Virus record (IMG/VR): IMGVR_UViG_2654587686_000023
Reading direction: 5' to 3' (one strand)
DNA length: 30,377 bases
Source: a virus
Taxonomy: Duplodnaviria; Heunggongvirae; Uroviricota; Caudoviricetes
Shown: positions 5,325-30,377 of the stretch, piece after piece
How positions within the stretch are numbered: position 1 is the first letter of the stretch
Layout: each line of letters opens with the position of its first letter
Program-made: the position numbers and the translations under genes
Notes under the pieces: generated by a model
What the model was told of the DNA's origin: nothing
The model's database searches: none
The model's input: the letters and a program-made list of their open reading frames with translations, nothing else

Positions 5325-5362
5325 ATGTCGTAGGTCTGACTCACCCATTTTTTGGGCGTTGG

Positions 5363-5370: not shown

Positions 5371-5526
5371 CCAGCGCCTTTGTCAATCAATGGTGGCTCA
5401 GGCGGGGGCTTCTTCGGAAGCGCCGGTATCCTTCAGAGCCGGTTACGCCAACCCTGTCTGGGCTACCACCAGCGAAATTGGCGTTTCCGGTGGTAGCGTA
5501 ACCTGCTATCTGAAGGAGGCTGCCAC

Positions 5527-11422: not shown

Positions 11423-11884
11423 ATGGAACTAAAATTTATTGATAACCCTGTGCGATTACAGGCCTTTCTTAACGATCCTGGCAATACCGAAAATATTGTT
11501 GAGCCGGGGCACACGTACTACATCAAGCCTGATGCGGTATATCTCGGCATCTACGAAGGATTGGTGCTGGCTGGCGTTCATGAAGTGCGTAACTTCTGGC
11601 ATAGCGTTGTTGAATGCCATGCGGTGTATGACCCCGGATTCCGTGGTGAATATGCACTGCAAGGGCATCGACTATTCTGCAAATGGCTTCTCGAAAACTC
11701 ACCATTCCTTAACAGCATCACTATGGTTCCTGACACCACGAAATACGGACGGGCAATTATCCGTTTGCTTGGCGCTACCCGTGTTGGTCACCTTGATGAT
11801 GCTTATATCAGATGTGGTAAACCCGTCGGCGTAACGCTTTATCAGTTAACTCGGCAACAATATAAGGAATTCAGCGAATGTTAA
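11423..11884 (+). CDS. hypothetical protein (153 aa), first gene of a coupled 4-gene operon
   Basis: ORF; stop overlaps the next start. No family recognised. Confidence 0.6.
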   Translation: MELKFIDNPVRLQAFLNDPGNTENIVEPGHTYYIKPDAVYLGIYEGLVLAGVHEVRNFWHSVVECHAVYDPGFRGEYALQGHRLFCKWLLENSPFLNSITMVPDTTKYGRAIIRLLGATRVGHLDDAYIRCGKPVGVTLYQLTRQQYKEFSEC

Positions 11885-12555
11885 TTACCCATATAGCTCA
11901 TAAACATCTCAATCGTGCCGTATACGAAAAAGGCGGTGATGGTGGTGCCTCTAAAGCTCAGGCGAAGGCCCAGCAGCAGGCAATTGATTTGCAGCGCGAG
12001 CAGTGGAATACGGTGATGAATAATCTCAAGCCGTATGCAGAAGTCGGATTGCCTGCTTTACAACAACTACAAGGACTGATGACTCTGGAAGGGCAGAATA
12101 AAGCCGCGAATGATTTCTTTGGTTCTGGTTTATATAAAACACAGGCAGATCAGGCCCGTTATCAGAACCTTGTCTCAGCAGAAGCTACCGGGGGGCTTGG
12201 CTCAACAGCTACCAGTAACCAGTTATCTTCCATTGCGCCCATGCTTTATAACAATTGGCTTAGTGGGCAAATGCAAAATTATGGAAACCTGCTAAATGTC
12301 GGGATGAATGCGGCATCAGGGCAGGCAACGGCAGGGCAAAACTACGCCAATAATACCGGACAACTCTTGCAGGGGCTTGGCGCTATTCGTGCAGGTCAGG
12401 CGCAGCAGCCATCCAGTCTTGCGCGTGGTATTGGTGGGGCAGCATCAGGCGCTTTAGCGGGTGCGCAACTTGGTTCCGTTGTTCCTGGAATAGGTACTGC
12501 GGCAGGCGCTATTGGTGGTGGGCTTATTGGTCTTGTTGGGGGGCTTGGATTCTAA
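11878..12555 (+). CDS. hypothetical protein (225 aa) with Gly/Ala-rich glycine-zipper-like C-terminus; phage ejection/internal-protein-like
   Basis: ORF with low-complexity C-terminal GxxxG-rich hydrophobic segment (GIGGAASGALAGAQLG...GGLIGLVGGLGF); start overlaps upstream stop. Confidence 0.6.
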   Translation: MLITHIAHKHLNRAVYEKGGDGGASKAQAKAQQQAIDLQREQWNTVMNNLKPYAEVGLPALQQLQGLMTLEGQNKAANDFFGSGLYKTQADQARYQNLVSAEATGGLGSTATSNQLSSIAPMLYNNWLSGQMQNYGNLLNVGMNAASGQATAGQNYANNTGQLLQGLGAIRAGQAQQPSSLARGIGGAASGALAGAQLGSVVPGIGTAAGAIGGGLIGLVGGLGF

Positions 12556-13874
12556 TGGCGACATGGCAACTTGGCGGGCTGCCTAGCATGGCACCGCAAA
12601 ATGATAATGCTCCTCGTTCTTCCGTTCCTCAGCCTGTGCAGTATCAGCAGCAGCCAAACGTAGGTTTAATGGCGCTACAGGGGCTAAGAGGCGTTGCTGA
12701 GATTAATCAGCAGGCGCAAATTTCCCAGCAGCTAAAAGAATATCAGGCACAGTTGGGTAGTGCGGTAGCTAATAATGATCGTGTTGGCGTGCAGAAGTTA
12801 ATGGCCCAGTATCCCCAGTTTATGGCTGATTCTCAAAAACAGATGGGATTCATTGATGCTGAGCAAAATCGGCAGACCGCTGACGCTGCCATGAATCTGC
12901 GTCTTGCGTCACAAACTGGAGATCCACTGACCATGCAGAAGGCCATTCAGCAGGCAAATCCAGTATTACAGCGATTTGGTCTTCCTGCTGAAGAGGTTTA
13001 TCAGTCTTGGCAGAATGACCCACAGGAATTCAACAGAATCACTGACCTCATCCACCTCCATGCTGATCCAAATAGTTACTTTAGTGTTCAAGAGAAGCAG
13101 CAAGGGCAGAGTATTGCACAGCAGAACGCAGATACATCTGCATATAATGCTCAGGTTAATGCGGAACAGGGTAATCGGCGTCTCGATATGGAGCAGTTCA
13201 AAGTCCTATCCGATAACCAGCTACGCACGAGAGAAATGGTTCTGAAAGCACGACTTGGACGTGCTCAAAATGACATCGAGAGAGACAAGCTCAATGCTGA
13301 ACTGAGCAAGGTACAGCAGGCGAAAGTGGAGAAGATGAACGATAAAATTAATACTGTTGCAGGTAACATCGACTCCTTGAACTCTGCGCTTGAAGTGGGT
13401 CATGAACTGGCGGGAATTGTAGGGAAACATCCTTCGGCCGTTACCCGTTCGCAGAACTATAACCCCCTGACGCTGGGGTTTGGATTCCTTCCTGATGTAG
13501 CAGAAGACACACGAAGCCTACGCGCCAAAGCTGATGAATACAACCTAAAGGTTATTCTGCCTAGCCTCAAAGGGACTTTTGGCTCTAACCCAACCGAAGG
13601 GGAAAGGGCTGCCCTTATGCAATCTCAAAATGGCATTAAGTCAGCAACCAGCAATGAGGCATTTTTGCGAGAGTTGAATAAAGCGCAGGACGTAATTATT
13701 CGAATGCAGAAACGACAGATTGCCGGGCTCGGTATTCCTGTAACCAAATCTAAGGACGAAGAAACTGATACTAAAATGCTGTTGCAGGATCCTTCTCTGG
13801 TTAAGGATTATGTGACCGCACATGGCTATCTGCCGGAAAGTTACTATCAGGCAAAACTTAAGGGATGGCAATGA
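12555..13874 (+). CDS. hypothetical Gln-rich, probably coiled-coil protein (439 aa); phage ejection/internal-protein-like
   Basis: ORF whose ATG overlaps the previous stop (TAATGG); Q-rich heptad-like sequence. Confidence 0.6.
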   Translation: MATWQLGGLPSMAPQNDNAPRSSVPQPVQYQQQPNVGLMALQGLRGVAEINQQAQISQQLKEYQAQLGSAVANNDRVGVQKLMAQYPQFMADSQKQMGFIDAEQNRQTADAAMNLRLASQTGDPLTMQKAIQQANPVLQRFGLPAEEVYQSWQNDPQEFNRITDLIHLHADPNSYFSVQEKQQGQSIAQQNADTSAYNAQVNAEQGNRRLDMEQFKVLSDNQLRTREMVLKARLGRAQNDIERDKLNAELSKVQQAKVEKMNDKINTVAGNIDSLNSALEVGHELAGIVGKHPSAVTRSQNYNPLTLGFGFLPDVAEDTRSLRAKADEYNLKVILPSLKGTFGSNPTEGERAALMQSQNGIKSATSNEAFLRELNKAQDVIIRMQKRQIAGLGIPVTKSKDEETDTKMLLQDPSLVKDYVTAHGYLPESYYQAKLKGWQ

Positions 13875-16591
13875 TGGCACAACTGACAGAAAAACAGAAA
13901 GCCTATTCCCGTCATCTCGATGAAAAATATGGTTTCCCATCAGGGACGATGGAAACATTAGTTGGCAATGAATCTAGTGGTAACGGAAGTGCCGAGTCAC
14001 CGAAAGGAGCTAGAGGATTTGCTCAACTGATGCCCTCAGTAATGAGTGATGCTGGTTATCGTGGAACAGATCCGCGCTCACTGCCATTTGAAAAGCAAAT
14101 GGATATCGCAGCAAACCATCTCAATAAAGGAATGAAGCGATTTGGTGATATAGGTATGGCATTGGCTGGGTATAATTCTGGCTATGCTCGTATTAATGCC
14201 GTAAGAAACGGTAAATCTACACTGCCAGATGAAACGGCTAATTACGTAAGTAAATTTGCAGATGCCGGAATAATCCCTGATGACAGTGAAATCTTGCAGT
14301 TTGCACAAACCAGTCAACATCGCAATCTTCAGCAGCCTGACTACTCAGAGCTTGATAAAGAAATCTCTCAGGTGGGAGATATTTCTGCATGGGAAGCAAA
14401 ACGTCAGCAATTTAAGAACATAGAAGCAGGACTACCAACAGCCAGTTCATGGGAGCAGAAAAGAGCTCATTTTCTCGCCGATGAAAATGCCGGGGAACCG
14501 CAGCAGCAAGTAGCCAAGTCTAACCTTAATCCTGAGATGGAATATCTTTCGCCAGGACTGAAAGCTGCGCCAGAGCAGATGGCCAGAGGGATTGCTAATA
14601 TACCGTTTGATGTAATGGACGCAGGCGTGGGGGTAGTCAATGCGGCGCAATCAGCCGGAGCATGGGCAGCTCAGAAGCTTGGTGTGGGTGATGGTACATA
14701 CACGCCCATATCACCTGTCTTTCGCCCAGTAGACCAACCTACAGATCCATACGCGCAGGCTGGTGAGCAGCTAGCACCTTACCTTATTACAGGATTAGGT
14801 GCAGGAAAGGCAGCTACCGCAGCTTCTTCAGTTGCCAACGCTCCACGTGCTGAACGTGCGGCCACAAAGGTGGCTAGTATGTTGGCAGAAAACCTGCCAG
14901 GTACATTGGTGAACGCCCAAAAGAACGGGCAGATCAGCCCAGAAGACCTAGCAAAAGAGACAGGTATTGGCCTAGCAGGATCGCTAGGAGCACGCGCTTT
15001 AATAAAGAGCGGACAGACAGCCAGTGACGTAATGCGAGATGTATTGCGGAGTAATACAAATCAATCAAGCTATGTGTTAGGGGCAGCAAATACTCTGGAA
15101 ACCGCCAATGATGTATCGAAAGCAGCGCGTTCTGCCGTAGGCCGAGAGCATATCGCATCGCAGGCATCAAACGTCAGAGATGATGTCGCTAAGGCGGCGA
15201 AAATCACTGGTATTAATATCAACACCCTGACGCCTGGAATGCGCTCAGGTAGTCGTGGAATTGCCCAAGCAGAAGGTGTTCTGGCATCAACTCCTGGGAA
15301 TGTTCAGGATGCTCACCTTACGGCCTTCAATGAAATATCCTCAAAGTTGAATAAGCAGTTGTCTGATTTCGGTGCTGAGTCTGGAAGCGCATCAGAAAAA
15401 AGCGCAGCAATTAAAGAGCGCATCATCGCGAGCCTCAGTGATATGAAAACAGCAGAGAATATGGCATGGGCAGAACTGCGAAGCACGATGCCACGCGAAA
15501 GGATGAAAATGAGTAATGGGATGGCTGTCGTCCAAGCAGAAAAAGCAGCCAATGTTCCACTCAGCCCGGAGATGAAACAGTTTCAGGCTGCCAATAACCA
15601 AGGTGGCGGCATAACCTTCGACGGGATGAAGGCATGGCGTGCTAAGTTTGCTGATGCTGAACAAGCAAACACCCGGGCAGGTAAGGCCAATGCCGCCCGG
15701 GTTGCCGGAGAAATGCGCAGAGCTATCACTGATGACATGCGCATCATGGCTGAAAAAGGAAACTTCCTCACAGAATGGCAGAAAGCTAACGATCTCTCTA
15801 AAAGTTACATTATCGCCAAACAAAATGCCGAATCTGTTTTTGGTCGAGATCTCGCATCAGACGCTATGGTAAGAAAAGGTGCCGATACGCTTAAGGCATC
15901 CGCAAACACTGGAACGGGAGCTTTTCACCGTCTTATCTCCGCGCTGCCGGAAGCAGAACGCCAACCAGCAATAGCATCTATTCTTCAGCATGCTGTGGCG
16001 CAGGGAGAGAAGGGAGGAATCGGTGAAGAGTCTGGTATCCAGTATTTTGCCAAGCTCATGACCCAGCAGAATGTAAACGCCATCAGTCGTCATGCGCCAG
16101 ATCTCGGTAGAATGATGAAAGAGTTCGGTGTACTCGCTAAAGCCAGCACCAGACCGCAGCGATACGTAGAGCGCACGGGAAGAACAACTGAGGCTCTCAA
16201 AACGCTCGATTCAGGCCTTCCAAAGATCGTCGGCGTGATTATGAACGGAGTTCAACAGTCAGGTGCGATCGCTGGAGGCTTTGGCGGTGGTGTAATTGGT
16301 TCGATTAGTGGTTTGGTTGCTGGTGGCGCGCTGAGAAATACTGTGGCTAAGATTGGGGCGACAAGAAGTGGTCGATATGCGATAGAGAAAGCCGTTCAGG
16401 AAGCTACAAAAGCAGTGCGCGCAGGGGCATCACCAGCAGCGATCGCCGCAGCAGAGAAACGATTTTCGGCCAATAAAATTGCCATGAAAGCAATTCGTGA
16501 TGCCGTTGGGGCTGAAGAATTCGTGAAACTGACAAGGGCCGGGATTGTAGCTACCCTCAGTGGCATGAAAGATGTTAGCGAATGGGAATAG
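13865..16591 (+). CDS. large protein (908 aa) with N-terminal lytic transglycosylase (SLT) motif; phage internal-virion/ejection-protein-like
   Basis: N-terminal ES...GARGFAQLMPS...AGYNSGY pattern matches the catalytic Glu-Ser and G-L-M-Q/AYN-G signatures of family-1 lytic transglycosylases; rest is Ala-rich low complexity; start overlaps upstream stop. Confidence 0.7.
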   Translation: MAMMAQLTEKQKAYSRHLDEKYGFPSGTMETLVGNESSGNGSAESPKGARGFAQLMPSVMSDAGYRGTDPRSLPFEKQMDIAANHLNKGMKRFGDIGMALAGYNSGYARINAVRNGKSTLPDETANYVSKFADAGIIPDDSEILQFAQTSQHRNLQQPDYSELDKEISQVGDISAWEAKRQQFKNIEAGLPTASSWEQKRAHFLADENAGEPQQQVAKSNLNPEMEYLSPGLKAAPEQMARGIANIPFDVMDAGVGVVNAAQSAGAWAAQKLGVGDGTYTPISPVFRPVDQPTDPYAQAGEQLAPYLITGLGAGKAATAASSVANAPRAERAATKVASMLAENLPGTLVNAQKNGQISPEDLAKETGIGLAGSLGARALIKSGQTASDVMRDVLRSNTNQSSYVLGAANTLETANDVSKAARSAVGREHIASQASNVRDDVAKAAKITGININTLTPGMRSGSRGIAQAEGVLASTPGNVQDAHLTAFNEISSKLNKQLSDFGAESGSASEKSAAIKERIIASLSDMKTAENMAWAELRSTMPRERMKMSNGMAVVQAEKAANVPLSPEMKQFQAANNQGGGITFDGMKAWRAKFADAEQANTRAGKANAARVAGEMRRAITDDMRIMAEKGNFLTEWQKANDLSKSYIIAKQNAESVFGRDLASDAMVRKGADTLKASANTGTGAFHRLISALPEAERQPAIASILQHAVAQGEKGGIGEESGIQYFAKLMTQQNVNAISRHAPDLGRMMKEFGVLAKASTRPQRYVERTGRTTEALKTLDSGLPKIVGVIMNGVQQSGAIAGGFGGGVIGSISGLVAGGALRNTVAKIGATRSGRYAIEKAVQEATKAVRAGASPAAIAAAEKRFSANKIAMKAIRDAVGAEEFVKLTRAGIVATLSGMKDVSEWE

Positions 16592-16741: not shown

Positions 16742-17440
16742 ATGATTAAAAATCTTCTTTTAATATTATCCCTGTCATTATTGGCTGGATGCGTACAAAA
16801 ACCGTTAGTAACGGTCAATGCTTTATCTTCCGGGCAATCTGTCGGTAAGAAGTTCTTGATCATCCCCGCAAGCCAAGAACTTTGGAACACCAAACAGATT
16901 GAATACACTCAAATAGCTACGGTAGTAGCCGCCAGTTTATCAAGCCAAGGATATACACAAGTTAAAGATGAAAAATTGGCTGACCAGGTAATTCTCTTGA
17001 ACTTTTTGAGAAGCGGGGCCATTTCAAATACTCGTAATGTAACCATCCCAATATACGGGCAAACTGGTGTGAGCTCAGCAACAACGTACGGAAACTCGAA
17101 CACCACGTTCAATAGTTATGGTGGTGGCTACGGTACAGCTAATACCACTGGAACGGCAACAACAGTTTATACGCCTACTTATGGAATTACTGGCGCGTAT
17201 AACACAACTGTGACGGACACGTTCTACGGCGCAGGGGTGATACTCCAGTCGTTTGATGCCAAGGCCTATCTCAATAATAGGCAGATTAATATGTTATGGA
17301 AAGTTGGTAGCTCAGTCGTCTCGCAACAGTCTGATGGAATTGCTGATTACAAGGGGTTGGCGAGAATAGCCGCTAGCTATGCCGGGAAAAATACAGAAGG
17401 TGATATAACTTTTAATGTTGACCCTAAAGCACCAAATTAA
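16742..17440 (+). CDS. putative lipoprotein (232 aa), Thr/Gly/Tyr-rich
   Basis: N-terminal signal peptide with lipobox LLAGC (Cys at position 17); followed by a hairpin terminator. Confidence 0.7.
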   Translation: MIKNLLLILSLSLLAGCVQKPLVTVNALSSGQSVGKKFLIIPASQELWNTKQIEYTQIATVVAASLSSQGYTQVKDEKLADQVILLNFLRSGAISNTRNVTIPIYGQTGVSSATTYGNSNTTFNSYGGGYGTANTTGTATTVYTPTYGITGAYNTTVTDTFYGAGVILQSFDAKAYLNNRQINMLWKVGSSVVSQQSDGIADYKGLARIAASYAGKNTEGDITFNVDPKAPN

Positions 17441-17447
17441 CTAATAA

Positions 17448-17476
17448 GCCCGGTACGCCGGGCATTTTGCCCCCTA
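17448..17476 (+). terminator. Rho-independent terminator after lipoprotein gene (GCCCGG-TACG-CCGGGC + ATTTT)
   Basis: 6-bp GC stem/4-nt loop followed by T-rich tract 8 nt after the stop codon. Confidence 0.55.
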
Positions 17477-17624
17477 TTATTCATGAATCGCTTTTTCTAG
17501 AAGGTATGCGACAAACGTTAAGTGACATTGCCTACACATTCGGGGCGGGATTTCAAATCCGCTCCCAGTTGATGGGGCCGTTACAGTACGCGCATATCCG
17601 CTTTATGTGAAACAGGAAGATTTT

Positions 17625-17676
17625 TCTGATATCACTGCCACAGCAAAACACCAATTTCGAGACAAGTACGCGCGCG
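17625..17676. repeat. Repeat copy A: TCTGATAT...ACAAGTACGCGCGCG, (CG)n palindrome
   Basis: 15-mer ACAAGTACGCGCGCG at 17662-17676; same 15-mer also at 17948-17962 and 20654-20668. Confidence 0.7.
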
Positions 17677-17933
17677 AGGGGTATCAGTTGCAAAAAATTT
17701 TGCAACTACGTCCGACCAATACACACACGATGGCGGGGGATACCATAAAACTGTTCTCTACATGAGACAGAGTGGTGGTGATGTGTTGATTATCGGCCTA
17801 TATGCGCACAGGACGCGCTATGACAATGTTTTATGCGGGTACACCAATCACATGTATCTGGTGTGATAAATCGCGTTACATGACCTCTCATGTTGTGCTG
17901 GTGGTTATCACGACGTTCTGAATCTGGCTTTTG

Positions 17934-17962
17934 TCTGATATTTTGCGACAAGTACGCGCGCG
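17934..17962. repeat. Repeat copy B: TCTGATATTTTGCGACAAGTACGCGCGCG (contains 12-bp palindrome TACGCGCGCGTA)
   Basis: Seen in sequence; 29-bp unit shares about 24 positions with copy C. Confidence 0.7.
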
Positions 17963-18299
17963 TAACATCGAAATTATCGGATGGCGTATGTTGGTGGCAA
18001 GATAAAGTCGGCGTAATACAAAGGCGTTACTTGATAGCAGCAAGATTACAACAATGGTTGTTGAATTTGAGCGATGTAAGGAATTGATTTAGGGAGGCGC
18101 TGATGGCTAAAAAGTTCCACTACCAGCGGATGAATGCGCCAGCGATGGCCGTTTGGTAGTAAAAGAGGAGCCATTCCTCAATCAGTTGAATACATTATGC
18201 CAACTAAATGGGTGGGGGCACTGTGTGGGTATTCAGCGGTGACGGTATTTTTTAAGCCAAGGACTATCCGTAGCAGGGGGACTCATTTTGAAATATTTA

Positions 18300-18737
18300 T
18301 CATATGTAACTTATTATTTTAGATAAAGATTTCCAGTTAAAGAAAAAAGTTATCATTGATATAATCAAATATGCCCCTGCGAGTAGCAGGGCATAATAAT
18401 CCAGAGGCAGATTGCTGACAACAGGGGCAAACATCGAGATCATTGCTAATAGGCAGGCTGTGATCAGCGTAGTTCCTGTATCAAAAAGCCCCTCAATAAT
18501 GCCTTTTAGTACTCCGTTACTTTTTAGAGCGCCTACAATTCCCTTTGAACTATCAAAGCTACTTAGCATGGTGACTGATGCCAAAACAAAACCAAAGAGA
18601 ACTCCAGAAATAGTTGAAAGAGCACCAGCAGCCGAAATGACAGCATTGTGATCTAGGTCGTGTAAAAAATGGGCACCAGCAATAGCCATAGCTAGAGCAA
18701 ACAATGACTTGGCAGCAAACAATTTCCGAGAACTCAT
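18300..18737 (-). CDS. small integral membrane protein (145 aa, about four predicted TM helices); candidate effector of a two-gene defence/abortive-infection module
   Basis: ORF with AGGA SD 8 nt upstream; four hydrophobic segments by eye (approx. residues 7-27, 32-60, 87-107, 114-134); 12-bp gap to the upstream gene. Confidence 0.7.
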   Translation of the reverse strand: MSSRKLFAAKSLFALAMAIAGAHFLHDLDHNAVISAAGALSTISGVLFGFVLASVTMLSSFDSSKGIVGALKSNGVLKGIIEGLFDTGTTLITACLLAMISMFAPVVSNLPLDYYALLLAGAYLIISMITFFFNWKSLSKIISYI

Positions 18738-18749
18738 AATGTATTCCTG

Positions 18750-19835
18750 TTACGTTTGACTAACCAAATAGTACTGGGTTAGATACCTAAGGTTGTCATT
18801 CTTTGCTTGTAGCATAGCATTTTTAACGTCAGTATCGGTCGGATACCCATCTGCTTGGATAGGCACCATCTTCTTTACCGTAAGAACTTCGTCTACAAGA
18901 CTTTTCTTCTTTTTATCGCCCTGAGCAACAACATTTGCTTTCTCAAAAGTTAAACGACCATCACCACCAGGGAACTTTTCTAGCATCTCCTTAAGGCTTT
19001 TTTTAACGTCATCCTCAAGCCATCCCTTTGCTTTTCTTTTTAATGGAGAATGTCCGCGTAACGAAATAGTCAGGTGGCTTGAACTGGTGCCTCTGATCAT
19101 CTCAATCATCTGATTCGCGAACATTCCATCGAGTTGATACTGTGCGGCATTGAAGTTTCTTGGGATGGCCACAGAAATCTCGCAGCTTCTTAGATTGGAT
19201 CCAGTTTCGAGTAGTTCTTTGATGCTTTCTTCTTTCCAAATGGCTTCAAAAGAAACAGGGACTCCGCGATCACTGGAGTTGAAAAGAAGGAAGGCTAAGT
19301 CACTATGGCGTGGACCTAAATGATTTAAAGACAATACTAGAATGTCTGTCTGAGGATAATAAATAAAGTATGTACGTTCTGAAAGAGTCTTTGCCCCGGC
19401 TAGAGGGATTTTCTCTTCCACCCACTCTTTATCTGTAATATATGCCAGTGTTGCGCTTTTTCTTCTTCGAGACATGAATCCGAAGTAGGAGCCATCCTCG
19501 GGTGAGATGTCTAGAAAATGAATTTTAAGTTCTCTTTCACCAAAGTCTGCATAGTGGGTCATCTTGAAGTCTTTAGAACACCGATCATAGAGATTTTTAA
19601 AGGCCTCTGCGGTTAACCCCTTGTTACTAGTGCGAATATTCTCAGAGCTTGTGTAAAAGCCCACCCTTACAGATTTCAAACTTTGATCTTTTGGTGCCAC
19701 AGTCATTTGAGCTCCATTGTACTCTGCGATAGTTTTTGCACACCTTGAAATCAAAATCTCCATGTCAGTCACGAGAAAATAACTATGGATGAAACCCATC
19801 AAAGGCATTGAATACAGGTGGCTTTTGAGAATCAT
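18750..19835 (-). CDS. hypothetical soluble protein (361 aa as drawn; alternative start at MTVAPKD... about 43 codons downstream has a better SD)
   Basis: Long ORF on minus strand immediately upstream of the membrane-protein gene; no recognisable catalytic motif. Confidence 0.7.
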   Translation of the reverse strand: MILKSHLYSMPLMGFIHSYFLVTDMEILISRCAKTIAEYNGAQMTVAPKDQSLKSVRVGFYTSSENIRTSNKGLTAEAFKNLYDRCSKDFKMTHYADFGERELKIHFLDISPEDGSYFGFMSRRRKSATLAYITDKEWVEEKIPLAGAKTLSERTYFIYYPQTDILVLSLNHLGPRHSDLAFLLFNSSDRGVPVSFEAIWKEESIKELLETGSNLRSCEISVAIPRNFNAAQYQLDGMFANQMIEMIRGTSSSHLTISLRGHSPLKRKAKGWLEDDVKKSLKEMLEKFPGGDGRLTFEKANVVAQGDKKKKSLVDEVLTVKKMVPIQADGYPTDTDVKNAMLQAKNDNLRYLTQYYLVSQT

Positions 19836-20186
19836 CCTAACCTGGTGACGGTGGTTCGCATATCCTGATGGATGATCAGTGATTAATCAATGCGCCAAGC
19901 AGATGTGTCTATGTGTTTGTTAATCATTGCATGACAGTAGATCGACATGGGAGATCACGTTATATAGTTGAATTGTTAGGATATCCATGCACCGATCAAC
20001 TGACTAGGCTGATGTGCTTTTTAGCAGGTGCCATATAGTAGTTAGGCGGTTCTGTGAAATGATTACTGTTCCAGCATAACTGCGGCATAAAGCGGTGCTA
20101 TATAAGCTATTTGCTGGCGGATTTAGTCTTCACCGTTCATATATGTAGTGACTATTTGACAGAGTGTTAGTTCACGGACACTTTTT

Positions 20187-20293
20187 GTTGGTTCAAAATG
20201 AGTTGATGTTGGTTCAATATTTTAGAAAAAACACAATAAAAACAACGCTCTTTACAAATTGAACCAACTGAACCAACTGAACCAACACCTTTT
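20187..20293. repeat. Iteron cluster B: two TGTTGGTTCA copies (20187-20216) plus three inverted AACTGAACC-type units (20258-20284); inverted partner of cluster A
   Basis: 20248-20293 is the reverse complement of 10671-10724 apart from one 9-bp unit (both arms include AAAGGTGTT and CAATTTGTAAAGAG). Confidence 0.7.
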
Positions 20294-20322
20294 TGCTTAT
20301 CTATATAATCTGAGAGGCAGAA

Positions 20323-20604
20323 ATGATAAGGGACAGGAAAGCTGAAGAGCTGGAGTCAAAAGGGCTATACCGGAGAGCTGCCGCACGATGGATGGAAGTC
20401 ATGCTGTTATGCAGCGAGGACGATGATCGGGAATGGATAAAGCGCCGCCGTGAAACGTGTCTGGAGAACGTGAAGCGCCCGCCCGTGAAGGTTGAGGAAT
20501 TTGGCGACCTGCATAAAGCTGTTACCGAAACGCAACACCGCATGGGGATAGCGCAACCGAACGGTAACGCCTTCCGGTTAAATGGCGGCAAGAGGCAAAG
20601 GTAG
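20323..20604 (+). CDS. PerC-family transcriptional activator-like protein (93 aa)
   Basis: N-terminal KAEELESKGLYRRAAARWMEVM and REWIKRRRETC pattern resembles PerC/Pch-family proteins common in P4-like islands (recalled similarity). Confidence 0.65.
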   Translation: MIRDRKAEELESKGLYRRAAARWMEVMLLCSEDDDREWIKRRRETCLENVKRPPVKVEEFGDLHKAVTETQHRMGIAQPNGNAFRLNGGKRQR

Positions 20605-21750: not shown

Positions 21751-22102
21751 CCCGCATGTATTCACCTGATATTGCGTTGTCAGCGCCGCCAGTATCGCGC
21801 ATAACAGCGCACTGACCGGGTAAACCGTAGCGCACGACCGTTGCGTTAGTATCACCGCCGCGCCGTATCTGGCGCGATTCATACACTGTCACCCGCTCAA
21901 GCAGTCCACCAGCAACCATGCTTTCCAGTGTGCGCCGGGTTGATTCGAGCTGGTGACGCTTATCGAACGACACCATGCCATGAAGCAGGTAGGCCACACC
22001 CGACACATCGAACGGCGGCGCACCAATCTCACCAGTCACCCATTCGAGGTTATCCGGTTCAAAGTAGCTAAGTATCTCTTTTTTGCGACTGGTCATTCTC
22101 AT
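21743..22102 (-). CDS. hypothetical protein (119 aa)
   Basis: ORF on minus strand, overlaps 3' end of the preceding gene by 8 nt. Confidence 0.45.
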   Translation of the reverse strand: MRMTSRKKEILSYFEPDNLEWVTGEIGAPPFDVSGVAYLLHGMVSFDKRHQLESTRRTLESMVAGGLLERVTVYESRQIRRGGDTNATVVRYGLPGQCAVMRDTGGADNAISGEYMRVS

Positions 22103-22219
22103 GGCTGGCTGATTCCTTATTGTGGGATAGCACTATCATACAATAAGTGGGTTAAAGGGAGAGCGTTACCGCCTGATATGCTGTATGAATAACAACCAAA
22201 TTTCAGGGGCGGAAAAAGA

Positions 22220-22242
22220 TATGGGGGTACTTTTGGGGGTAT
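22220..22242. repeat. ATGGGGGTACTTTTGGGGGTATC, right-end copy of the GGGGGTA arm-type motif
   Basis: Near-identical to 1557-1580. Confidence 0.55.
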
Positions 22243-22303
22243 CTATAAAAAATGAACAATAAAAAAGGCAACAAAAACAAAGCTTATCGCCTATGTGTAT
22301 TGT

Positions 22304-22322
22304 TCCTATTATCGGCACCATT
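22304..22322. repeat. attR core: second copy of TCCTATTATCGGCACCATT
   Basis: Exact 19-bp repeat of the thrW 3' end (1428-1446). Confidence 0.85.
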
Positions 22323-22925
22323 AAGAAAATCAATAACTTAGCTTAACTTCTCTAAGAAATTGTATCTTCTGTTATCACTTACAAACGCCTATACGTTGTT
22401 ATGGGCTTTGGTAGTGTAACACGTATGGGCGAGTAGTTCCCAGGCTCAACCTCGTAACAAGTTCCTTTGAAGCTGGAAGACGTGCCACCGTCTCTAAACC
22501 TTCTACCAAAACTCTTAGCAAGATGTTCCACACCTGGCGCGGTGTCCAATGATGCCACACGTCGTGAGACGTTGCAGAGGATAAACAGGCTAAATGATGG
22601 GAAGAGTTTTAAGTGCAATAGTGGATTAAAGCCCACCTCTTCAAAACCTAACTTGATCGGGAAAGAATCAAGCTCTAGCACGGTTTCGTCCACCGGAGTA
22701 CAACGGGTGCCTGATAAGAGAAGAACTGCTAAGACTTCATAGCTTTTGTGAAAAAGCCCTTTTTAGTGGATACGCCTACGGCGCTTATTTTTTGGTATAA
22801 CCATCAAAGGCGCTTTATGGCTCCTATTGTCTTGAAAATGTATCTTTACTTGTATTGTGTTTTATGCGTAGTCTCCCTGTGTAGTATGTAACTTGTTAAT
22901 TTTCATATGAATACAGAGGCACACG

Positions 22926-23084
22926 ATGAAAAACATTGCAGCTATAAAACGTAATAACCGCAAGATTCACGCTCGTAAGTTCCTGTCTACGCCAGAAGGA
23001 AAAGCCTGGTTAGAGCGTAAACAGAGAGAGAACGAAGAAAGAAAACTCCTTAGTGAGTTGAAATGGCTTAGAGAGGATTTCTGA
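22926..23084 (+). CDS. small basic hypothetical protein (52 aa)
   Basis: Short ORF below track cutoff with GAGG 7 nt upstream of ATG; Lys/Arg-rich. Confidence 0.3.
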   Translation: MKNIAAIKRNNRKIHARKFLSTPEGKAWLERKQRENEERKLLSELKWLREDF

Positions 23085-23380
23085 AAATCTCCAGAACGCA
23101 ACAGGACGCATTCTAACGCTGTTTTCATTGCTTGGTATAGGGATGTATAGGTGATGTGTGTTTAATGCGTCTGTGAGCTTGTTTTGTGCCTTATTTTGCA
23201 TTTTCATAATGCAGAAGAGAACACGGAAAGCCTTAAAATTAATTATTGGGGTATTTAAGGCTATTTTTAGGGTATTTAAGGGTATTAAACTTGATTTAAT
23301 TGATTAAAATATAAACAGATAGTTCTGTATCTTATTGATTTATAAGGTTATTTTTAAATAAAGATAAATAAAAAATAAAT

Positions 23381-23430
23381 AGCCATAAATAGCCATAAAT
23401 AGCTATAAATACATCTAAATACATATGAAT
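23381..23430. repeat. Five tandem 10-bp units (AGCCATAAAT x2, AGCTATAAAT, ACATCTAAAT, ACATATGAAT)
   Basis: Helical-period (10 bp) direct repeats visible in sequence; further GGTATTTAAGG-like repeats at about 23245-23300. Confidence 0.6.
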
Positions 23431-23525
23431 CCCCTCCCTTATGGCTAGATTGCGAGAGGTGCTTAACGCGATTTTCAGCGCCCCCCGATCTGGAAAATCC
23501 AGAATCCCCAAATATCAAGGAGGCA

Positions 23526-24065
23526 TTACGCCTCCTCTTCTTCCTTCTTAATTCGCTGTACCGTTGAAGGAGCAACATTAAAGCTCTCGGCGGTTTTACG
23601 CACTGACAGGCCATCAGAAAGGGCTTTCTTTATACCTTCTCTATCTACTGCTTTTCCATTACCACGCTTTGTAGGATTGACGGCTTGCGCTTCTCGTTTA
23701 CGCTCTAACATCAGTTCACGTTCACACGTTGCAACTGCCGACAACATCGTAAGCATCATTTTTCCCATCGCGCTTGTAATGTCTGCAATGATCCCTTCTT
23801 TATGAAATCGAACAATTACACCTCGATTATTAAGTTGTTCCACTAAGGCAAGAATGTCTAAGGTGTTACGCCCTAAACGGTCGAGAGAGTGCACGTGTAA
23901 GGTGTCGCCTTCTCTCAGATAGGATAAACACGCCTGCAATCCTGGACGGTTAGTGTCTTTACCTGACAGCTTATCTTCAAAGACTTTATCAAGCGTTACT
24001 CCTGCAAGCTGGCGATCAGTGTTCTGATCTACAGTGCTCACACGCTTATAACCGATATTGCTCAT
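23526..24065 (-). CDS. small serine recombinase (resolvase/invertase family, 179 aa)
   Basis: N-terminal IGYKRVSTVDQNTDRQ with the catalytic-serine context typical of resolvase/invertase-type serine recombinases; short C-terminal DNA-binding region; size matches small resolvases. Confidence 0.85.
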   Translation of the reverse strand: MSNIGYKRVSTVDQNTDRQLAGVTLDKVFEDKLSGKDTNRPGLQACLSYLREGDTLHVHSLDRLGRNTLDILALVEQLNNRGVIVRFHKEGIIADITSAMGKMMLTMLSAVATCERELMLERKREAQAVNPTKRGNGKAVDREGIKKALSDGLSVRKTAESFNVAPSTVQRIKKEEEEA

Positions 24066-24079
24066 AAAATCCCCTTAAT

Positions 24080-24190
24080 GTATCGATTTGGCACTACTCC
24101 AATGCAAATGAGTATATCGTATTCATTTGGTCTGTTTCAAGCCTTATAGGTACGGAATATTACACGATTTAGATGTATTCATTTGGTATG
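24080..24190. promoter_or_regulatory. Repeat cluster upstream of recombinase gene: GTATTCATTTGGT at 24119-24131 and 24176-24188 plus related GTATCGATTTGGC at 24080-24092; candidate res/operator
   Basis: Three related 13-bp motifs directly 5' of the recombinase start codon; resolvases usually act at multi-subsite res sites next to their gene. Confidence 0.4.
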
Positions 24191-24674
24191 CCTAATGGAT
24201 ACACAGGGGAATAGATTAAATAGTGTTCTGTTTATACAGGTTTATTTGTTAGATCAACAATTTGGCATTTCTAAACAGATGTTTGAACGTTGCCAAATGT
24301 CTTGACAACACAAGAAAAGGGCTTGCTATGCCACGCATTACACGAAATAAGGCTGTAAAAACAAAATAAATTTTAAAATTTGCACAAACGAGAAAACTCA
24401 TTCAGAAACAAGCAGAACAATTTTTAGCCAACAATTTCTGATGGTGCTCTGTAAGCCGCACTACACAAGGCTTTGCGAAAGTGATGTAAAAGTGAAGAAA
24501 GTAAGAATTGCACTTTTAAGCTACTTTTCATTGAATTTTTAGTATGGAATTACACAGGAATAAGTTAGGGATATTCTATGATTTACACAGGGAATATAGG
24601 GGATTATGGCACACACATAGAAAGGCATTACACAGAGTGCTATGTGATGATTGGTAGTAACGGTAGTTCACTAT

Positions 24675-24784
24675 GAGCTAGGGGGTAGTTCACTATGAGC
24701 TAGGGGGTAGGTCATAGTGAGCTAGGGGGTAGGTCACTGTGAGCTAGGGGGTAGGTCATAGTGAGCTAGGGGGTAGGTCACTGT
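24675..24784. repeat. Five tandem 22-bp iterons GAGCTAGGGGGTAG(G/T)TCA(C/T)(T/A)GT with a partial leading copy from about 24655; candidate plasmid/phage replication origin
   Basis: Contiguous 22-bp direct repeats without spacers, immediately followed by an extremely AT-rich stretch (24795-24880, including (TA)n). Confidence 0.75.
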
Positions 24785-24794
24785 GAACTACAAT

Positions 24795-24880
24795 AAGACT
24801 ATTAATAAAACTATATTAGATTATTAATTAGATCATAATAATAATATTCTTTATATCTATATATATATATGATCTTTTGC
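24795..24880. other. AT-rich putative DNA unwinding element adjacent to the iterons
   Basis: Nearly pure A/T run with TATATATATATA; iteron + AT-rich arrangement is standard for theta-type origins. Confidence 0.5.
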
Positions 24881-25868
24881 CTTCCGGCGTTAGCTTCACT
24901 CTCTGGCAAGCAGCCTTACTCCGCTACCTTTGGGCTTCGTGGCTGGCCCGTTCCGCTCACACCGAAAGCAAAGCGTTACTTTCTTCGTGTAACTTCGTTG
25001 GCGATAACGCCCACGAAGAAATCTATTGCGCTGTGCGCAGAAGAGTAATCACCTAACCAATCATACTGATTGCTTATGTGTTAACTCTAACTCTTAATTC
25101 CACTTCTACATTCTGTAGTTGTGTAATTACTCGAAGAGAGAGCGGCTAAAGCTCAATTACACTCTGCTTTCCTCGTGTAATTTCACTAAGCCTCAATACA
25201 ATTCCACTTTCTACATTTAATAACTCTCGTTATTCTCTGTAGTTGTGTAATTGTTTTCGGTGGAAAAGCCAGAGGCGACACCGAAAGAGAATTCTGATCT
25301 TATTAATCTTATCTATCTTAGTTATCTTACTTATCTACTTTATTATTAATAATAGCTTTATAAGCTCTGTGTAGCTCTTTGACGCAAGAAACAGCATTCA
25401 GGAAGGGAATCACCTTAGAAAAGTGTTCTTTGCGTCATAATGTGTTTTATGAAGGATTCAGAGGTGTTTCATAACAGGAATGTATAGAGGATACTTTAAT
25501 TAATTAAAAATAAGGGGTCTAAATGCTTCTCTAATAGCATTAAGCAGGGTAGGGAATGGAAACGCATTGCCTACATATAATAAACTCACTACAGGGCTTT
25601 ACAGGGCGTTTTATAAAGTGACTCTCTATCTTATATCTACCATTACCTTTTCATATACCTAACAAATACAAAATAAGCCCCTTAAATAAGCCTCTGGCGA
25701 GCTAAACAGCCATTACATAAGGGAATGTATTGCTTTTATCAAAACCTCGTTAGAACGCGTTTTAGAGCGTTTTAGCGGATAATGAAGAATAGCACCACAC
25801 AGGAGAGCACGAATTGCTAAGAAAAAATGTAAGTGCATGAAAAAGATCGGATTTTTTGTGAAAAGGTA

Positions 25869-25896
25869 TTGACAAATGTTTCTTTATATGTAATAA
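25869..25896 (+). promoter_or_regulatory. sigma70-like promoter (TTGACA - 16 bp - TAATAA)
   Basis: Consensus -35 and near-consensus -10 about 110 nt upstream of the 26008 gene. Confidence 0.5.
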
Positions 25897-26007
25897 TAGG
25901 TATTAGAGGGACAGAAAACATTCTTCTCTAAATAATCAAAATCAATGCACTTTGAAGCCGTCAGGCTTGCAAGGTGTTTTTTCTTTTAACTGAATAAGGA
26001 GTTTTTT

Positions 26008-26196
26008 ATGAAATGGTTTACACCGAAACACGTCGTAGAGGCATTTAAAAAAGGTGAGCTTACACGCCATCAAGTAGTAATGAATCGTAATATGGCAAGG
26101 AGTCGAGGTTATCCAGAGCGAGCAGCTTGCTTCAATGAAGCACTCAAGATTATTGATGAACTAAGAAAAAATGAAAAAGAATCTGAAACAGAGTAA
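26008..26196 (+). CDS. small hypothetical protein (62 aa)
   Basis: ORF with AAGGAG SD. Confidence 0.55.
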   Translation: MKWFTPKHVVEAFKKGELTRHQVVMNRNMARSRGYPERAACFNEALKIIDELRKNEKESETE

Positions 26197-26215
26197 AGAA
26201 TAGAAGGAGAAAACT

Positions 26216-26383
26216 ATGAGCGAAACTAAGAAACCAATTCCGCGCACTTACCTACACGTTGACCCTGAAATCTTCAAGGTTTTATTTGCTGAAGCCAAGA
26301 AAAGGCAAATTATGGTCAGTGATTTGATGTTAGAAATCATTACTGAAGCAGCAGAGAACATCAAACAAAAAAAGGGTAAGTGA
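26216..26383 (+). CDS. ribbon-helix-helix-like DNA-binding protein (55 aa; CopG/ParG-like)
   Basis: Short ORF below track cutoff, AAGGAGA SD; TYLHVDPEIFKVLFAEAKKRQIMVSDLMLEII fits beta-alpha-alpha RHH pattern. Confidence 0.5.
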   Translation: MSETKKPIPRTYLHVDPEIFKVLFAEAKKRQIMVSDLMLEIITEAAENIKQKKGK

Positions 26384-26434
26384 TCCTCATTCACTTTAGT
26401 AGCGCATTAAGCGTGATTTATAAGGAGATTTTTA

Positions 26435-27124
26435 ATGATTAATCAACTAACTTTTACAAAACACTATGACACGTTTGATAATGTATCAAAGATTTATTCT
26501 GATAAATTCCCTCAAGGAAAAGATTTAGATCTATTACATATTGTGCTTTATTTTCGATTCCTTAGTTATCAGGAAAACAACCTTAATTGTTATGAAAGTC
26601 ACGAAACATTAGCTAAGATTTTTAAGTCTTCAGCGTCAACAATTAAACGTAAGATAAACGATCTTAAAGAGATGGGATTATTAGAAACATCCCCACATCC
26701 TGATCCGTATATTTCATCTTTGATTTACAATGCTCTCCCTCTCACAGATGCACATATTACTCCCCCAGGAGAATCATCACTCTCTGATCTTTCTGAGGCA
26801 GAAGAAGCACAGGAACAACCTAAAGGCCATAAACAGCCTTCTTTTGATGTTCTTGATGATTGGGATGCGCCTTTGCCGTGGGAGACGGAAGAAACACCTG
26901 TTTCATCAAGTGAAAAGGTAGCTAATGATAATGAGGAGGATGTGTTAGAGAATTTTGCATCTCTTATTATCAAGCAGAAGAATACCAGAACAGGAGGAGC
27001 ATCATTTATAGAATTTGCAACATCGTTAGCCTATAAGCACAGGTTAAAGCTACCAAATGGTATTGAGGCATATTTTTCTAAGAATTACCCAAATGTGTAT
27101 GATGACTTTGATATTCCATTTTAA
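26435..27124 (+). CDS. winged-helix DNA-binding protein with acidic central region (229 aa); candidate replication initiator/primosomal-type protein
   Basis: AAGGAG SD; N-terminal HTH (ETLAKIFKSSASTIKRKINDLKEMGLLE); lies about 1.6 kb from the iterons. Function inferred. Confidence 0.55.
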   Translation: MINQLTFTKHYDTFDNVSKIYSDKFPQGKDLDLLHIVLYFRFLSYQENNLNCYESHETLAKIFKSSASTIKRKINDLKEMGLLETSPHPDPYISSLIYNALPLTDAHITPPGESSLSDLSEAEEAQEQPKGHKQPSFDVLDDWDAPLPWETEETPVSSSEKVANDNEEDVLENFASLIIKQKNTRTGGASFIEFATSLAYKHRLKLPNGIEAYFSKNYPNVYDDFDIPF

Positions 27125-27135
27125 TAAGGAGGGTT

Positions 27136-27414
27136 ATGATTCAATATTTAGTAAAAAATCAAGTAGACAGAATTCAGTGTAATGACACAGGAAAACGCAT
27201 CTACGAAACACTTGCTTACCTCTATAAAGGAAAGCCAACACCGCTAAAATATAGCGATGTGTTACATCGAGCAGGGTGCTCTGAAGATGGTTTAAAATTC
27301 TGGCTTAAACAGCTATCAAACTTCGGTGTTATAGAAATTAAAGAATTATCTTTCTCTACATTCAATCTCAAAAGACTAGATAAAGAAATAGAATTCATCT
27401 ATTCCACTCTCTAA
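27136..27414 (+). CDS. small winged-helix-like DNA-binding protein (92 aa)
   Basis: AAGGAGG SD; putative HTH YSDVLHRAGCSEDGLKFWLKQLSNFGVIE. Confidence 0.55.
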   Translation: MIQYLVKNQVDRIQCNDTGKRIYETLAYLYKGKPTPLKYSDVLHRAGCSEDGLKFWLKQLSNFGVIEIKELSFSTFNLKRLDKEIEFIYSTL

Positions 27415-27543
27415 AATCTCTCTATGTAATTAAAATATAAAAGGAAAACATTATTATGATAGTAGCTATGTATTGGTTATTGTTCTTTCTCACGTTAGAA
27501 ACATATTTCGGGGTGTTTTCCTTTAAAAGAAAAGGAAAAATAA

Positions 27544-27954
27544 ATGGCAAAAAGAAAAAACAATGTTGTTAAGAAGATCGGTGATTCAGCTTCTCTTCTA
27601 AGTAAACCTAAATCTATTCTAAGACGTAAAGACTTTAAAGAGCTAGTTACGCTCACCAAGCATAATAGCGCCCCTGGCGAATGGAAAACAGAGATCATAG
27701 AACATTCTCCCTCTGTGCCTTGTGGAGATGAATATATCGCATTACAAGAAATCTTATCTTCAACACCTGGCGTATTCTGGAAACCTAGAAAAAGAAAAGA
27801 GTATATTGTTGATAGCTCTGATTTACGCAAATACCAGATTTTAGGATTTGAAGATTATAATCACTACGTTGGTTATCTCGCCACCAATGGCCTAAATAAT
27901 TTAGTTCCTGAATTCCAGATTCTGGATAATGTTGATCACTATGGAGACTTTTAA
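27544..27954 (+). CDS. hypothetical protein (136 aa), basic N-terminus
   Basis: ORF with AAGGA SD. Confidence 0.55.
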   Translation: MAKRKNNVVKKIGDSASLLSKPKSILRRKDFKELVTLTKHNSAPGEWKTEIIEHSPSVPCGDEYIALQEILSSTPGVFWKPRKRKEYIVDSSDLRKYQILGFEDYNHYVGYLATNGLNNLVPEFQILDNVDHYGDF

Positions 27955-27955
27955 T

Positions 27956-28294
27956 ATGAACAAAAACACGTATGACACAATTTACTCACTAATTAATTAT
28001 TATGAGGATGATTACCTCCTGCCTTTAAACCGTGCTGAACTTGAAGCATACAAAGAAAACACGCCAGCGGCACTAAATGAGGCGTTTAAACACTGGGATT
28101 TAGCTGTGAATGCCTTTGAGATGCTCTGTAAGCGTGTAGAGATGCTCTGTAAGAGTGAGAACGCATATCTGACAGCGGATCAGATATGGGAGCTATCAAA
28201 CTGGATAGAAGGTATTTACTCGGACGTTCGCTATGTAGGAGACGGACTTGTTGAACTAGCTCAACGCTTAGGCGCTGCTATCACAGAAGAATAA
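27956..28294 (+). CDS. hypothetical protein (112 aa from ATG 27956; track ORF starts 27929)
   Basis: ATG at 27956 has GGAG 9 nt upstream and begins 1 nt after the previous stop; contains an in-frame 21-bp tandem duplication (EMLCKRV/EMLCKSE). Confidence 0.5.
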   Translation: MNKNTYDTIYSLINYYEDDYLLPLNRAELEAYKENTPAALNEAFKHWDLAVNAFEMLCKRVEMLCKSENAYLTADQIWELSNWIEGIYSDVRYVGDGLVELAQRLGAAITEE

Positions 28295-28323
28295 AAAAAG
28301 CAACAAAAAAGTTGTAAAATATC

Positions 28324-28352
28324 TTGACATTTCATCTATTGTATGTTAATAT
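28324..28352 (+). promoter_or_regulatory. Strong sigma70 promoter (TTGACA - 17 bp - TAATAT)
   Basis: Consensus -35 and 5/6 -10 with optimal spacing in the intergenic region upstream of the head-gene block. Confidence 0.6.
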
Positions 28353-28484
28353 AATTATATAGGGTGATTATTTTTCCTTTGTTGGTTCGATATTAAAAAT
28401 TCTTCCTGTCATTAAAGGGGAGTAAAATCTCCGCTCCCCGCTTCTCCTCCTCCTTAAGTGTCATTATTACCTCTTTTTTCCTTT

Positions 28485-28514
28485 GTTATGCATACATCTT
28501 GGAGTATGCATAAC
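28485..28514. promoter_or_regulatory. Perfect 10-bp inverted repeat GTTATGCATA-N10-TATGCATAAC; candidate operator or RNA hairpin
   Basis: Seen in sequence within the leader between promoter and terminator. Confidence 0.45.
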
Positions 28515-28543
28515 ATAGGGTAATTACATAGGTATGAGTTAAT

Positions 28544-28576
28544 AAAAGGCGGCTTTAAATGCTGCCTTTTATTTTG
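28544..28576 (+). terminator. Intrinsic terminator-like hairpin (AAAAGGCGGC-TTTAAAT-GCTGCCTTTT + ATTTTG)
   Basis: About 10-bp stem with one mismatch, flanked by A-run and T-run, about 215 nt downstream of the strong promoter and about 60 nt upstream of the next gene. Confidence 0.5.
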
Positions 28577-28637
28577 CCCGTTATGCAACTTAAAAGTTGT
28601 ATTTCTTACTTTAAACAAGGTAACAAGGTTTATATAA

Positions 28638-28850
28638 ATGTTGTTCTTAAATGATAAAGAGCAAATCATCAAGTATAAAGATGAAATGCTGAAAATTAAT
28701 CCACAAATTACCGAAATGGTAGCTAAATACGCTGGGTGTTCTGTAGAGGAAGTAGAAAGATGTGTTGAAAAATATTTTTCTCCTTCTTCTCCGTCTACAC
28801 CTTCCCTTAATGAATTAATCAAATTAAAAGCTAAGGAGATTACTAAATGA
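28638..28850 (+). CDS. small hypothetical protein (70 aa)
   Basis: ORF; weak SD; stop overlaps next start (ATGA). Confidence 0.45.
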   Translation: MLFLNDKEQIIKYKDEMLKINPQITEMVAKYAGCSVEEVERCVEKYFSPSSPSTPSLNELIKLKAKEITK

Positions 28851-29209
28851 TTATTGATTTAGACGCTCTTTTTCCAAGTCGAAAGACGTTTACAGATCTG
28901 GTGGCTTATTGTACTGATCCGTTTGCCTCTGTAGAAAGCAAGGTTTTTGCTTCTCTTCCTGCTGATGTTGAATGCGGAGACTTGATCACCAGCACTGGCG
29001 CTAAATATGAATCAGGAGATGATATCTATGTTGTTATGAGTGAATTTGTAACGGCTGGAGACAACAAGCCTGTAGATGTGCTACGTAGCAATGCTGGGCT
29101 TGTATGCATCAAAGCTGATGCCCTGAATGCTGTAAGTGAAGCAGCAAAAACAGCATTAATTAAAAAAGGCTTCCAGCTTGAAGGCTTTAATACGGTTTTC
29201 ACTTCTTAA
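28847..29209 (+). CDS. possible head decoration protein (lambda gpD-like position and size, 120 aa)
   Basis: AAGGAG SD; about 110-120 aa protein immediately upstream of a gpE-like capsid gene, as in lambda D-E; assignment by synteny and size only. Confidence 0.5.
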   Translation: MIIDLDALFPSRKTFTDLVAYCTDPFASVESKVFASLPADVECGDLITSTGAKYESGDDIYVVMSEFVTAGDNKPVDVLRSNAGLVCIKADALNAVSEAAKTALIKKGFQLEGFNTVFTS

Positions 29210-29227
29210 TAAAAGGAATAATAATAA

Positions 29228-30256: not shown

Positions 30257-30377
30257 TATTTTAACGTGTAATAGAGGCGTGGCGCTGATGAATCCCCTAA
30301 TGATTTTGGTAAAAATCATTAAGTTAAGGTGGATACACATCTTGTCATATGATCAAATGGTTTCGCGAAAAATCAAT

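Follow-up and report, generated by a model that had tools for sequence, protein, structure and literature searches.

A candidate Rex-type gene pair, remotely similar to lambda RexA/RexB, in the variable cargo of a satellite-like island of Escherichia coli

Introduction

What is the role of two adjacent minus-strand genes that stand, between stretches of DNA free of long ORFs, in an integrated element of E. coli? The pair occurs in a sequence of 30,377 nucleotides, analysed here over its whole length (IMG/VR record IMGVR_UViG_2654587686_000023; hereafter the window). The upstream gene, A, has a maximal ORF of 361 aa (18750-19835) and the downstream gene, B, an ORF of 145 aa (18300-18737). An earlier note, made from the letters alone, had proposed the two as a defence system, with lambda RexAB and Kiwa as possible models. 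RexAB was the first abortive-infection system discovered, and to our knowledge its trigger and activation mechanism are still unsolved. By early 2026 only five Rex-like systems had been described, according to Rosendahl et al. 2026 (PMC12894663). The same source gives the membrane protein as the effector in four of the five, describes a reversed logic with a toxic cytoplasmic protein for gp30/gp31 of mycobacteriophage Butters, and identifies RexABpp of Pseudomonas putida prophage P1 as PP_5643/PP_5644.

Results

Gene models and flanking DNA

Judged by conservation, A and B are real genes: their homologs are conserved across Enterobacterales and Vibrio, and both belong to PHROG families. The arrangement described in the earlier note held up on measurement. 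The two genes oppose the island's remaining long ORFs, all of which are on the plus strand, the gap between them is 12 nt, and the flanks, put at about 850 and 460 bp, measure 859 bp (17441-18299) and 487 bp (19836-20322), with short overlapping ORFs only. The size given for the upstream protein needed revision, in that 361 aa is the length of the maximal ORF but not of the product. On sequence criteria, translation of A almost certainly starts at M44 (window position 19706), because RefSeq places the start there (318 aa), because homologs in 64 clusters have lengths of 309-323 aa, ORF-extended ones excepted, and because GGAG lies 5 nt 5' of the M44 ATG, while no Shine-Dalgarno sequence stands at a suitable distance from the ATG at 19835. 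The 43 additional codons are probably an untranslated leader. The Shine-Dalgarno sequence of B, AGGA, lies within the spacer, 7 nt before its ATG. Feature coordinates are collected in Table 1.

Table 1. Features of the A-B module and their positions in the window
Feature	Position	Strand	Description
Gene A, putative RexA-like cytoplasmic component	18750..19706	-	318 aa; WP_001528727.1; phrog_7651; divergent DUF6731 superfamily member
Gene B, putative RexB-like four-helix inner-membrane effector	18300..18737	-	145 aa; WP_000098670.1; phrog_8552
A ORF 5' extension	19707..19835	-	in-frame, 43 codons; missing from RefSeq models and homologs
A-B spacer	18738..18749	-	12 nt, CAGGAATACATT; from TAA of A to ATG of B
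Intergenic region upstream of A	19836..20322	-	has to contain the operon promoter
Terminator-like hairpin, then T-run	18165..18179	-	about 120 nt 3' of the B stop codon; from consensus scan and sequence

No sigma-70-like site was found on the minus strand in 19836-20322, and the count of sites from the promoter scan was not above that in shuffled sequence. The hairpin downstream of B is a possible operon terminator, held at low confidence, the count of terminator-like sites in the consensus scan being likewise not above shuffles. An Rfam scan of the ORF-free flanks matched no family.

The flanks hold several repeats. Six copies of the 9-mer TGAACCAAC/GTTGGTTCA, three of them in tandem at 9-nt spacing and others inverted, occur at 20186-20287, a short way 5' of perC and some 500 nt before the start of gene A; this array may be an operator or an iteron array. 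The ORF-free DNA downstream of B contains four copies of AGTACGCGC(GCG) at 17585-17964, among them the inverted pair TACGCGCGCG/CGCGCGCGTA with 278 nt between its members. A perfect palindrome, AGTTGCAAAA-N2-TTTTGCAACT, lies at 17686-17707.

Protein A and the DUF6731 superfamily

The earlier note saw no recognisable motif in the upstream protein, and indeed neither A nor B obtained a significant match in Pfam, NCBIfam or PADLOC-DB v2. No nuclease or other enzymatic motif was recognised in A by these scans; marginal matches to TubZ-like_C and DUF2649 were set aside as noise. Both proteins match PHROG families of unknown function, A at E 4e-139 and B at E 4e-54. Our literature search for DUF6731, both WP accessions and both PHROGs found no paper mentioning them.

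Homologs of A fall into 64 clusters, from 99% down to 31% identity, from Enterobacterales and metagenomes. A itself gives no match at E<=1 to PF20505, the Pfam model for DUF6731; homologs at 41-49% identity to A carry that domain, a profile of the A family detects DUF6731 proteins about 290 aa long with E-values between 1e-27 and 1e-7, and PF20505 matches 39 of the 54 members of the A superfamily alignment (best E 8e-20). Through homologs and profile, that is indirectly, A belongs to the DUF6731 superfamily, in a divergent enterobacterial/Vibrio subclade whose members have about 310-320 aa, compared to about 290 aa for typical DUF6731 proteins. A profile search of 1.8 billion representatives returned 250 clusters, mostly of proteins of about 290 aa. 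Twenty-eight positions in A are invariant, and conserved residues include F17, E110, Y116/Y117, D121, N128, G131-P132 and P182-R183. The computed pI is 8.9 for A and 8.6 for RexA.

Run against PDB sequences, the A superfamily profile did not recover RexA and gave weak matches to eIF2-alpha only. The match, to the S1/helical region of eIF2-alpha (E 0.009; profile 212-290, about 230-310 of A), in which 'IDL..R' and a helical segment are shared, was judged chance. The A homolog of phage vB_EcoS-733R5 (ON470608; 5001-5942 of locus L004) is labelled 'portal (connector) protein', almost certainly a misannotation; phage cdtI labels the same gene 'hypothetical protein'.

Protein B, a predicted four-helix membrane protein

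The earlier description of B as having about four hydrophobic helices is borne out by hydropathy, with four segments at residues 6-24, 40-58, 89-107 and 115-133, and by the AF2 model, with four long helices. Charges of +3 at the N-terminus, +3 in the central loop and +2 at the C-terminus contrast with no positive charges in the outer loops. Because this distribution follows the positive-inside pattern, B is predicted to be a small four-TM protein of the inner membrane whose N-terminus, central loop and C-terminus all face the cytoplasm. Mean column identity in the B family is 82%, and invariant residues are concentrated in TM2 and the central loop, those of the loop including D62, K65, G66 and N74. 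A role for B as holin or antiholin was considered and rejected: holin families gave no significant match, and in lambdoid prophages Q and the lysis genes are encoded on the other strand from the pair. The window island lacks a lysis cassette.

Remote similarity to RexA and RexB

A has the RexA fold, comprising a split globular domain, a dimerisation domain and a kinked C-terminal helix. In a structure search, A matched RexA far above background and reproduced RexA's own list of neighbours. For the B model, which is of modest quality, lambda RexB was outside the best 50 BFVD matches, and the second-best match was a 165-aa Sbash protein (E 0.04).

Pfam models for the Rex proteins are nearly silent. 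None of the 54 members of the A superfamily matched Pfam RexA (PF15969) at E<=10, and B itself did not match Pfam RexB (PF15968); two of six distant B partners gave sub-threshold matches to the latter, at E 0.039 (near full-length) and 0.13. Alignment by hhalign of the two family profiles to the single lambda sequences was not significant (E 0.12 and 0.32). The comparison was therefore made with profiles from varied Rex sequences and judged against empirical nulls, setting 25 diverse RexA sequences against the 54-sequence A superfamily alignment, and six RexB sequences (lambda plus those from loci of divergent RexA homologs) against 39 non-identical B family sequences.

The A superfamily and RexA align collinearly over 253 columns (A 14-313, RexA 2-271; P 0.0026), at low hhalign probabilities. 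The score of 29.4 compares with a mean of 18.0 (sd 2.5, maximum 25.9) for 60 block-shuffled targets and with 17.6 for the reversed sequence. Paired in this alignment are the conserved N-terminal GFY strand, L102/L82, G131-P132/G109-P110, D136-L137/D114-L115 and the FEAIW/IEPLM strand. In the alignment of the B family to RexB, TM1, TM2 and the central loop of the two are in register (P 5.7e-5, probability 66%), and its score of 34.4 was reached by none of 100 block shuffles (mean 15.1, sd 2.4, maximum 25.0; reversed 13.4). The distant partners bridge B and RexB by eye, as in TLTSVAATLLGFLIAALALLAS compared to TLSSYAGTMIAILIAALTFLIG of RexB and RRLIQKMKEYGHY compared to RRLAKIREYGYM. By this remote similarity, A and B are probably very distant relatives of lambda RexA and RexB. 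The earlier note's reading of the pair as a candidate defence system gains support from the RexA fold of A, the four-TM form of B, and profile similarity above the nulls for both.

Linkage of A and B

Through viral contigs and exact-protein lookups, 86 loci were gathered from phages, IMG/VR prophages and genomes; a narrow peptide-pattern scan of genome contigs yielded 3 loci only. A B homolog lies directly downstream of A on the same strand in all 86. The gap between the two is -20 to +28 nt in 84, and the exceptions are two loci with a disrupted A. Phages cdtI and vB_EcoS-733R5 encode a 147-aa protein that starts 3 nt after the A homolog, and an autolykivirus-like (tectivirus-like) prophage of Vibrio has the same A-then-partner arrangement adjoining its integrase; the partners in these three have the motifs of B and four hydrophobic segments. 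Distant DUF6731 genes, at about 20% identity to A, also precede a 4-TM partner of 134-170 aa. In two metagenome contigs, a B-like 4-TM ORF was left uncalled or an ORF was called on the wrong strand (L112, 5963-6406; L117, 1447-1896), and co-occurrence counts from called genes would therefore underestimate the pairing.

At the loci examined the pair is always on mobile elements. It sits in the moron slot between Q/DUF968 and endolysin, on the opposite strand, in 68 of the 86 loci; 5 are in perC islands like that of the window, and 12 elsewhere or on short contigs. One locus, in a prophage (L023), has the layout of the lambda immunity region: A and B come directly after a cI-type repressor and share its strand. 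This repressor has HTH_3 and Peptidase_S24 domains and is 60% identical to lambda cI by tblastn. The window copy adjoins perC and has no neighbouring repressor.

The island and its cargo slot

The window is E. coli DNA in which proA is followed by tRNA-Thr(CGU) (thrW) and then by the integrated island. The island encodes an integrase of the P4 type (Arm-DNA-bind_3, Phage_int_M), a small HTH protein, an antirepressor and a Zn-ribbon/Toprim/DUF927 primase, and it has an 'ash' gene that overlaps isrK and C4 antisense RNAs. DUF2824 and homologs of the P22 ejection proteins gp7, gp20 (Inj_translocase) and gp16-like SLT are encoded at 11423-16591, followed in order by genes for a 232-aa lipoprotein, B, A, perC and PRiA4_ORF3. 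The label of P4-like satellite applied earlier fits the integrase, C4/isrK and the DUF927 primase, but not the P22-type ejection proteins or the lack of any recognisable P4 capsid-size or psu genes. Since it pairs such ejection genes with no recognisable capsid-size or psu genes, the island is, by gene content, satellite-like rather than canonical P4.

Podovirus ejection proteins encoded by a satellite-like element itself are unusual. Rfam places isrK (67.8 bits, 5246-5323, plus strand) and C4 antisense RNA (79.9 bits, 5386-5473, plus strand) within an ORF of 355 aa (4865-5932) whose annotation is 'ash family protein'; together the two RNAs are an antisense immunity RNA module of the P1/P7/P4 type. 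Beyond perC/PRiA4, GC falls to 0.31-0.40 over 22000-29500, with a resolvase gene at 23526-24065 (minus strand); this is probably a separate, foreign segment. A match to RNA-OUT, the IS10/Tn10 antisense RNA, at 30330-30377 (minus strand) runs off the end of the window, which puts the start of an IS10-type element there. A search of the window for an attR copy of the 3' end of tRNA-Thr found none.

Positions 17400-20400 are covered to at least 80% in 41 of 5426 complete E. coli genomes. The flanks alone match in many more, and there the interval from the ejection-protein gene to perC is filled differently: some genomes have an Abi family protein, which in one strain is a pseudogene, others a pair with an ImmA/IrrE metallopeptidase, and others pairs of an HTH protein and a small protein. 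The slot, 17542-20406, is a variable-cargo hotspot because genomes sharing its flanks carry differing cargo, as the earlier note had supposed of this position. One relative has a Doc-family toxin just past perC.

Discussion

A Rex-type reading and the known systems

We judge it likely that A and B form a two-gene Rex-type phage-exclusion or abortive-infection operon, carried as accessory cargo of an integrated satellite-like island. The reading is based on the fold of A, the topology and conservation of B, strict linkage, remote profile similarity, synteny, and residence in accessory DNA and a hotspot.

Lambda rexA encodes 279 aa and is followed, after a 15-nt spacer, by rexB with 144 aa; A-B has the same gene order, tight linkage and comparable dimensions (318 aa, 12 nt, 145 aa), and in B as in RexB the positive charges lie at the N-terminus, central loop and C-terminus. 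The pair differs from lambda RexA/RexB (PF15969, PF15968; 8TWQ) in its low identity, about 15%, in the extra 40 or so residues of A, and in that A falls in the DUF6731 superfamily instead of matching a Pfam Rex model. It differs also in location, the window copy being in a cargo hotspot by perC and most relatives in the Q/lysis moron slot, not in the immunity region. Kiwa, too, is an anti-phage combination of a membrane protein and a soluble partner. In Kiwa the membrane protein KwaA comes first, the reverse of the A-B order; neither A nor B matched the KwaA/KwaB models of PADLOC-DB v2 at E<=1, and the fold of A resembles RexA, not KwaB/DUF4868. A Kiwa-type reading was dropped on these grounds.

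Similar in form are Sbash gp30/gp31 and CarolAnn gp44/gp43, each a soluble RexA-like protein with a 4-TM RexB-like protein (PMC6426596, PMC6426606). These are lysogenically expressed, abortive-type defences that cannot do without the membrane protein's central cytoplasmic loop (PMC6426596, PMC6426606), and Sbash gp31 is inactivated by R70A and D73A (PMC6426596). The invariant TM2/central-loop region of B corresponds to the region of these two substitutions. The Sbash and CarolAnn soluble proteins are longer (about 370 aa) and have a DUF4747 motif, and no sequence similarity to A and B was detectable. RexABpp differs in its host and in its genomic setting, downstream of a CI-like repressor.

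Proposed mechanism and alternatives

In the Rex-type mechanism we propose, A would be a basic cytoplasmic protein with the RexA fold, presumed dimeric, that acts as the infection sensor; what it recognises would probably be a phage protein, phage DNA or DNA-protein intermediates. Judged from lambda RexA, its mycobacteriophage homologs and P. putida RexApp, A is probably a dimer that binds DNA. B would be the effector; activated by A, it would oligomerise or open in the inner membrane, dissipating ATP and membrane potential or integrity, so that the infected cell is arrested and phage growth aborted. From the Rex comparison we infer the DNA binding, the activation of B by A, the depolarisation, and the anti-phage phenotype with its targets.

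The roles could be exchanged, as in the Butters system, one of the five described Rex-like systems (PMC12894663): A would then be the toxic effector, sequestered or neutralised by B until infection releases it. Strict co-occurrence suits a toxin/antidote pair equally well, and A is strongly conserved, with its 28 invariant positions. B, however, is conserved at least as strongly (82%, with invariant TM2 and loop), as an effector should be. Scans of A recognised neither a nuclease motif nor that of any other enzyme, and in the other four systems the membrane protein is the effector (PMC12894663). We consider a Butters-type division of roles unlikely, and a toxin-antitoxin reading of the pair, which was also weighed, was down-weighted with it. 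The resemblance to RexAB might itself be convergence or a modelling artefact; A would then be some alpha/beta protein without relation to RexA, and B a small membrane protein of no particular kind. Identity is about 15%, the Pfam Rex models are silent, hhalign probabilities are low, and helical membrane proteins produce many spurious matches. Against this, the structure match is far above background and reproduces the RexA neighbour list, A and B each beat composition-preserving nulls against the cognate Rex partner, gene order is identical with similar sizes and spacing, one locus has cI-A-B synteny, and distant partners supply bridging motifs; convergence or artefact is very improbable.

Lambda RexA biases the cI/Cro switch, and RexB inhibits ClpXP-mediated turnover. 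A-B might similarly modulate the life cycle or lysis timing of its carrier element and not serve primarily in defence. The location of 68 of the 86 loci between Q and the lysis cassette, and of one after cI, would suit such a role, as would the action of lambda RexA on the bistable switch independently of RexB, reported in PMC11077077. But in the Q/lysis slot the pair opposes the late operon in strand, the classic position of a lysogen-expressed moron, and it is also found where no lysis cassette or cI is nearby, in the window island and in the autolykivirus-like prophage of Vibrio. The same island slot has Abi-type cargo in other strains, and B lacks a significant holin family match. A role chiefly in the life cycle is, to our mind, quite unlikely.

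Implications

If the Rex-type assignment holds, it would give a functional hypothesis for DUF6731 and its unnamed membrane partner (phrog_7651, phrog_8552), and a widespread family would join the few known Rex-like defence systems. It would also fill a gap in defence annotation, since the pair escapes PADLOC v2 and NCBIfam. Rex-type systems would then be common accessory cargo, with several divergent alleles in the Q/lysis slot of E. coli prophages, and others in satellite-like islands and in a tectivirus-like prophage of Vibrio. The conserved residues of A, and TM2 and the central loop of B, are targets for mutagenesis.

The DUF6731-type clade comprises about 250 clusters at 50% identity, from Enterobacterales, Vibrio and uncultured Pseudomonadota. 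It is conceivable, though doubtful, that DUF6731 with its 4-TM partner makes up a large, unrecognised sister clade of RexAB, maybe diversified in trigger or logic, the island copy perhaps acting against helper or competing phages rather than simply protecting the host. If so, E. coli would offer a tractable model in which to ask, across many natural alleles, how Rex systems sense infection, a question now 70 years old.
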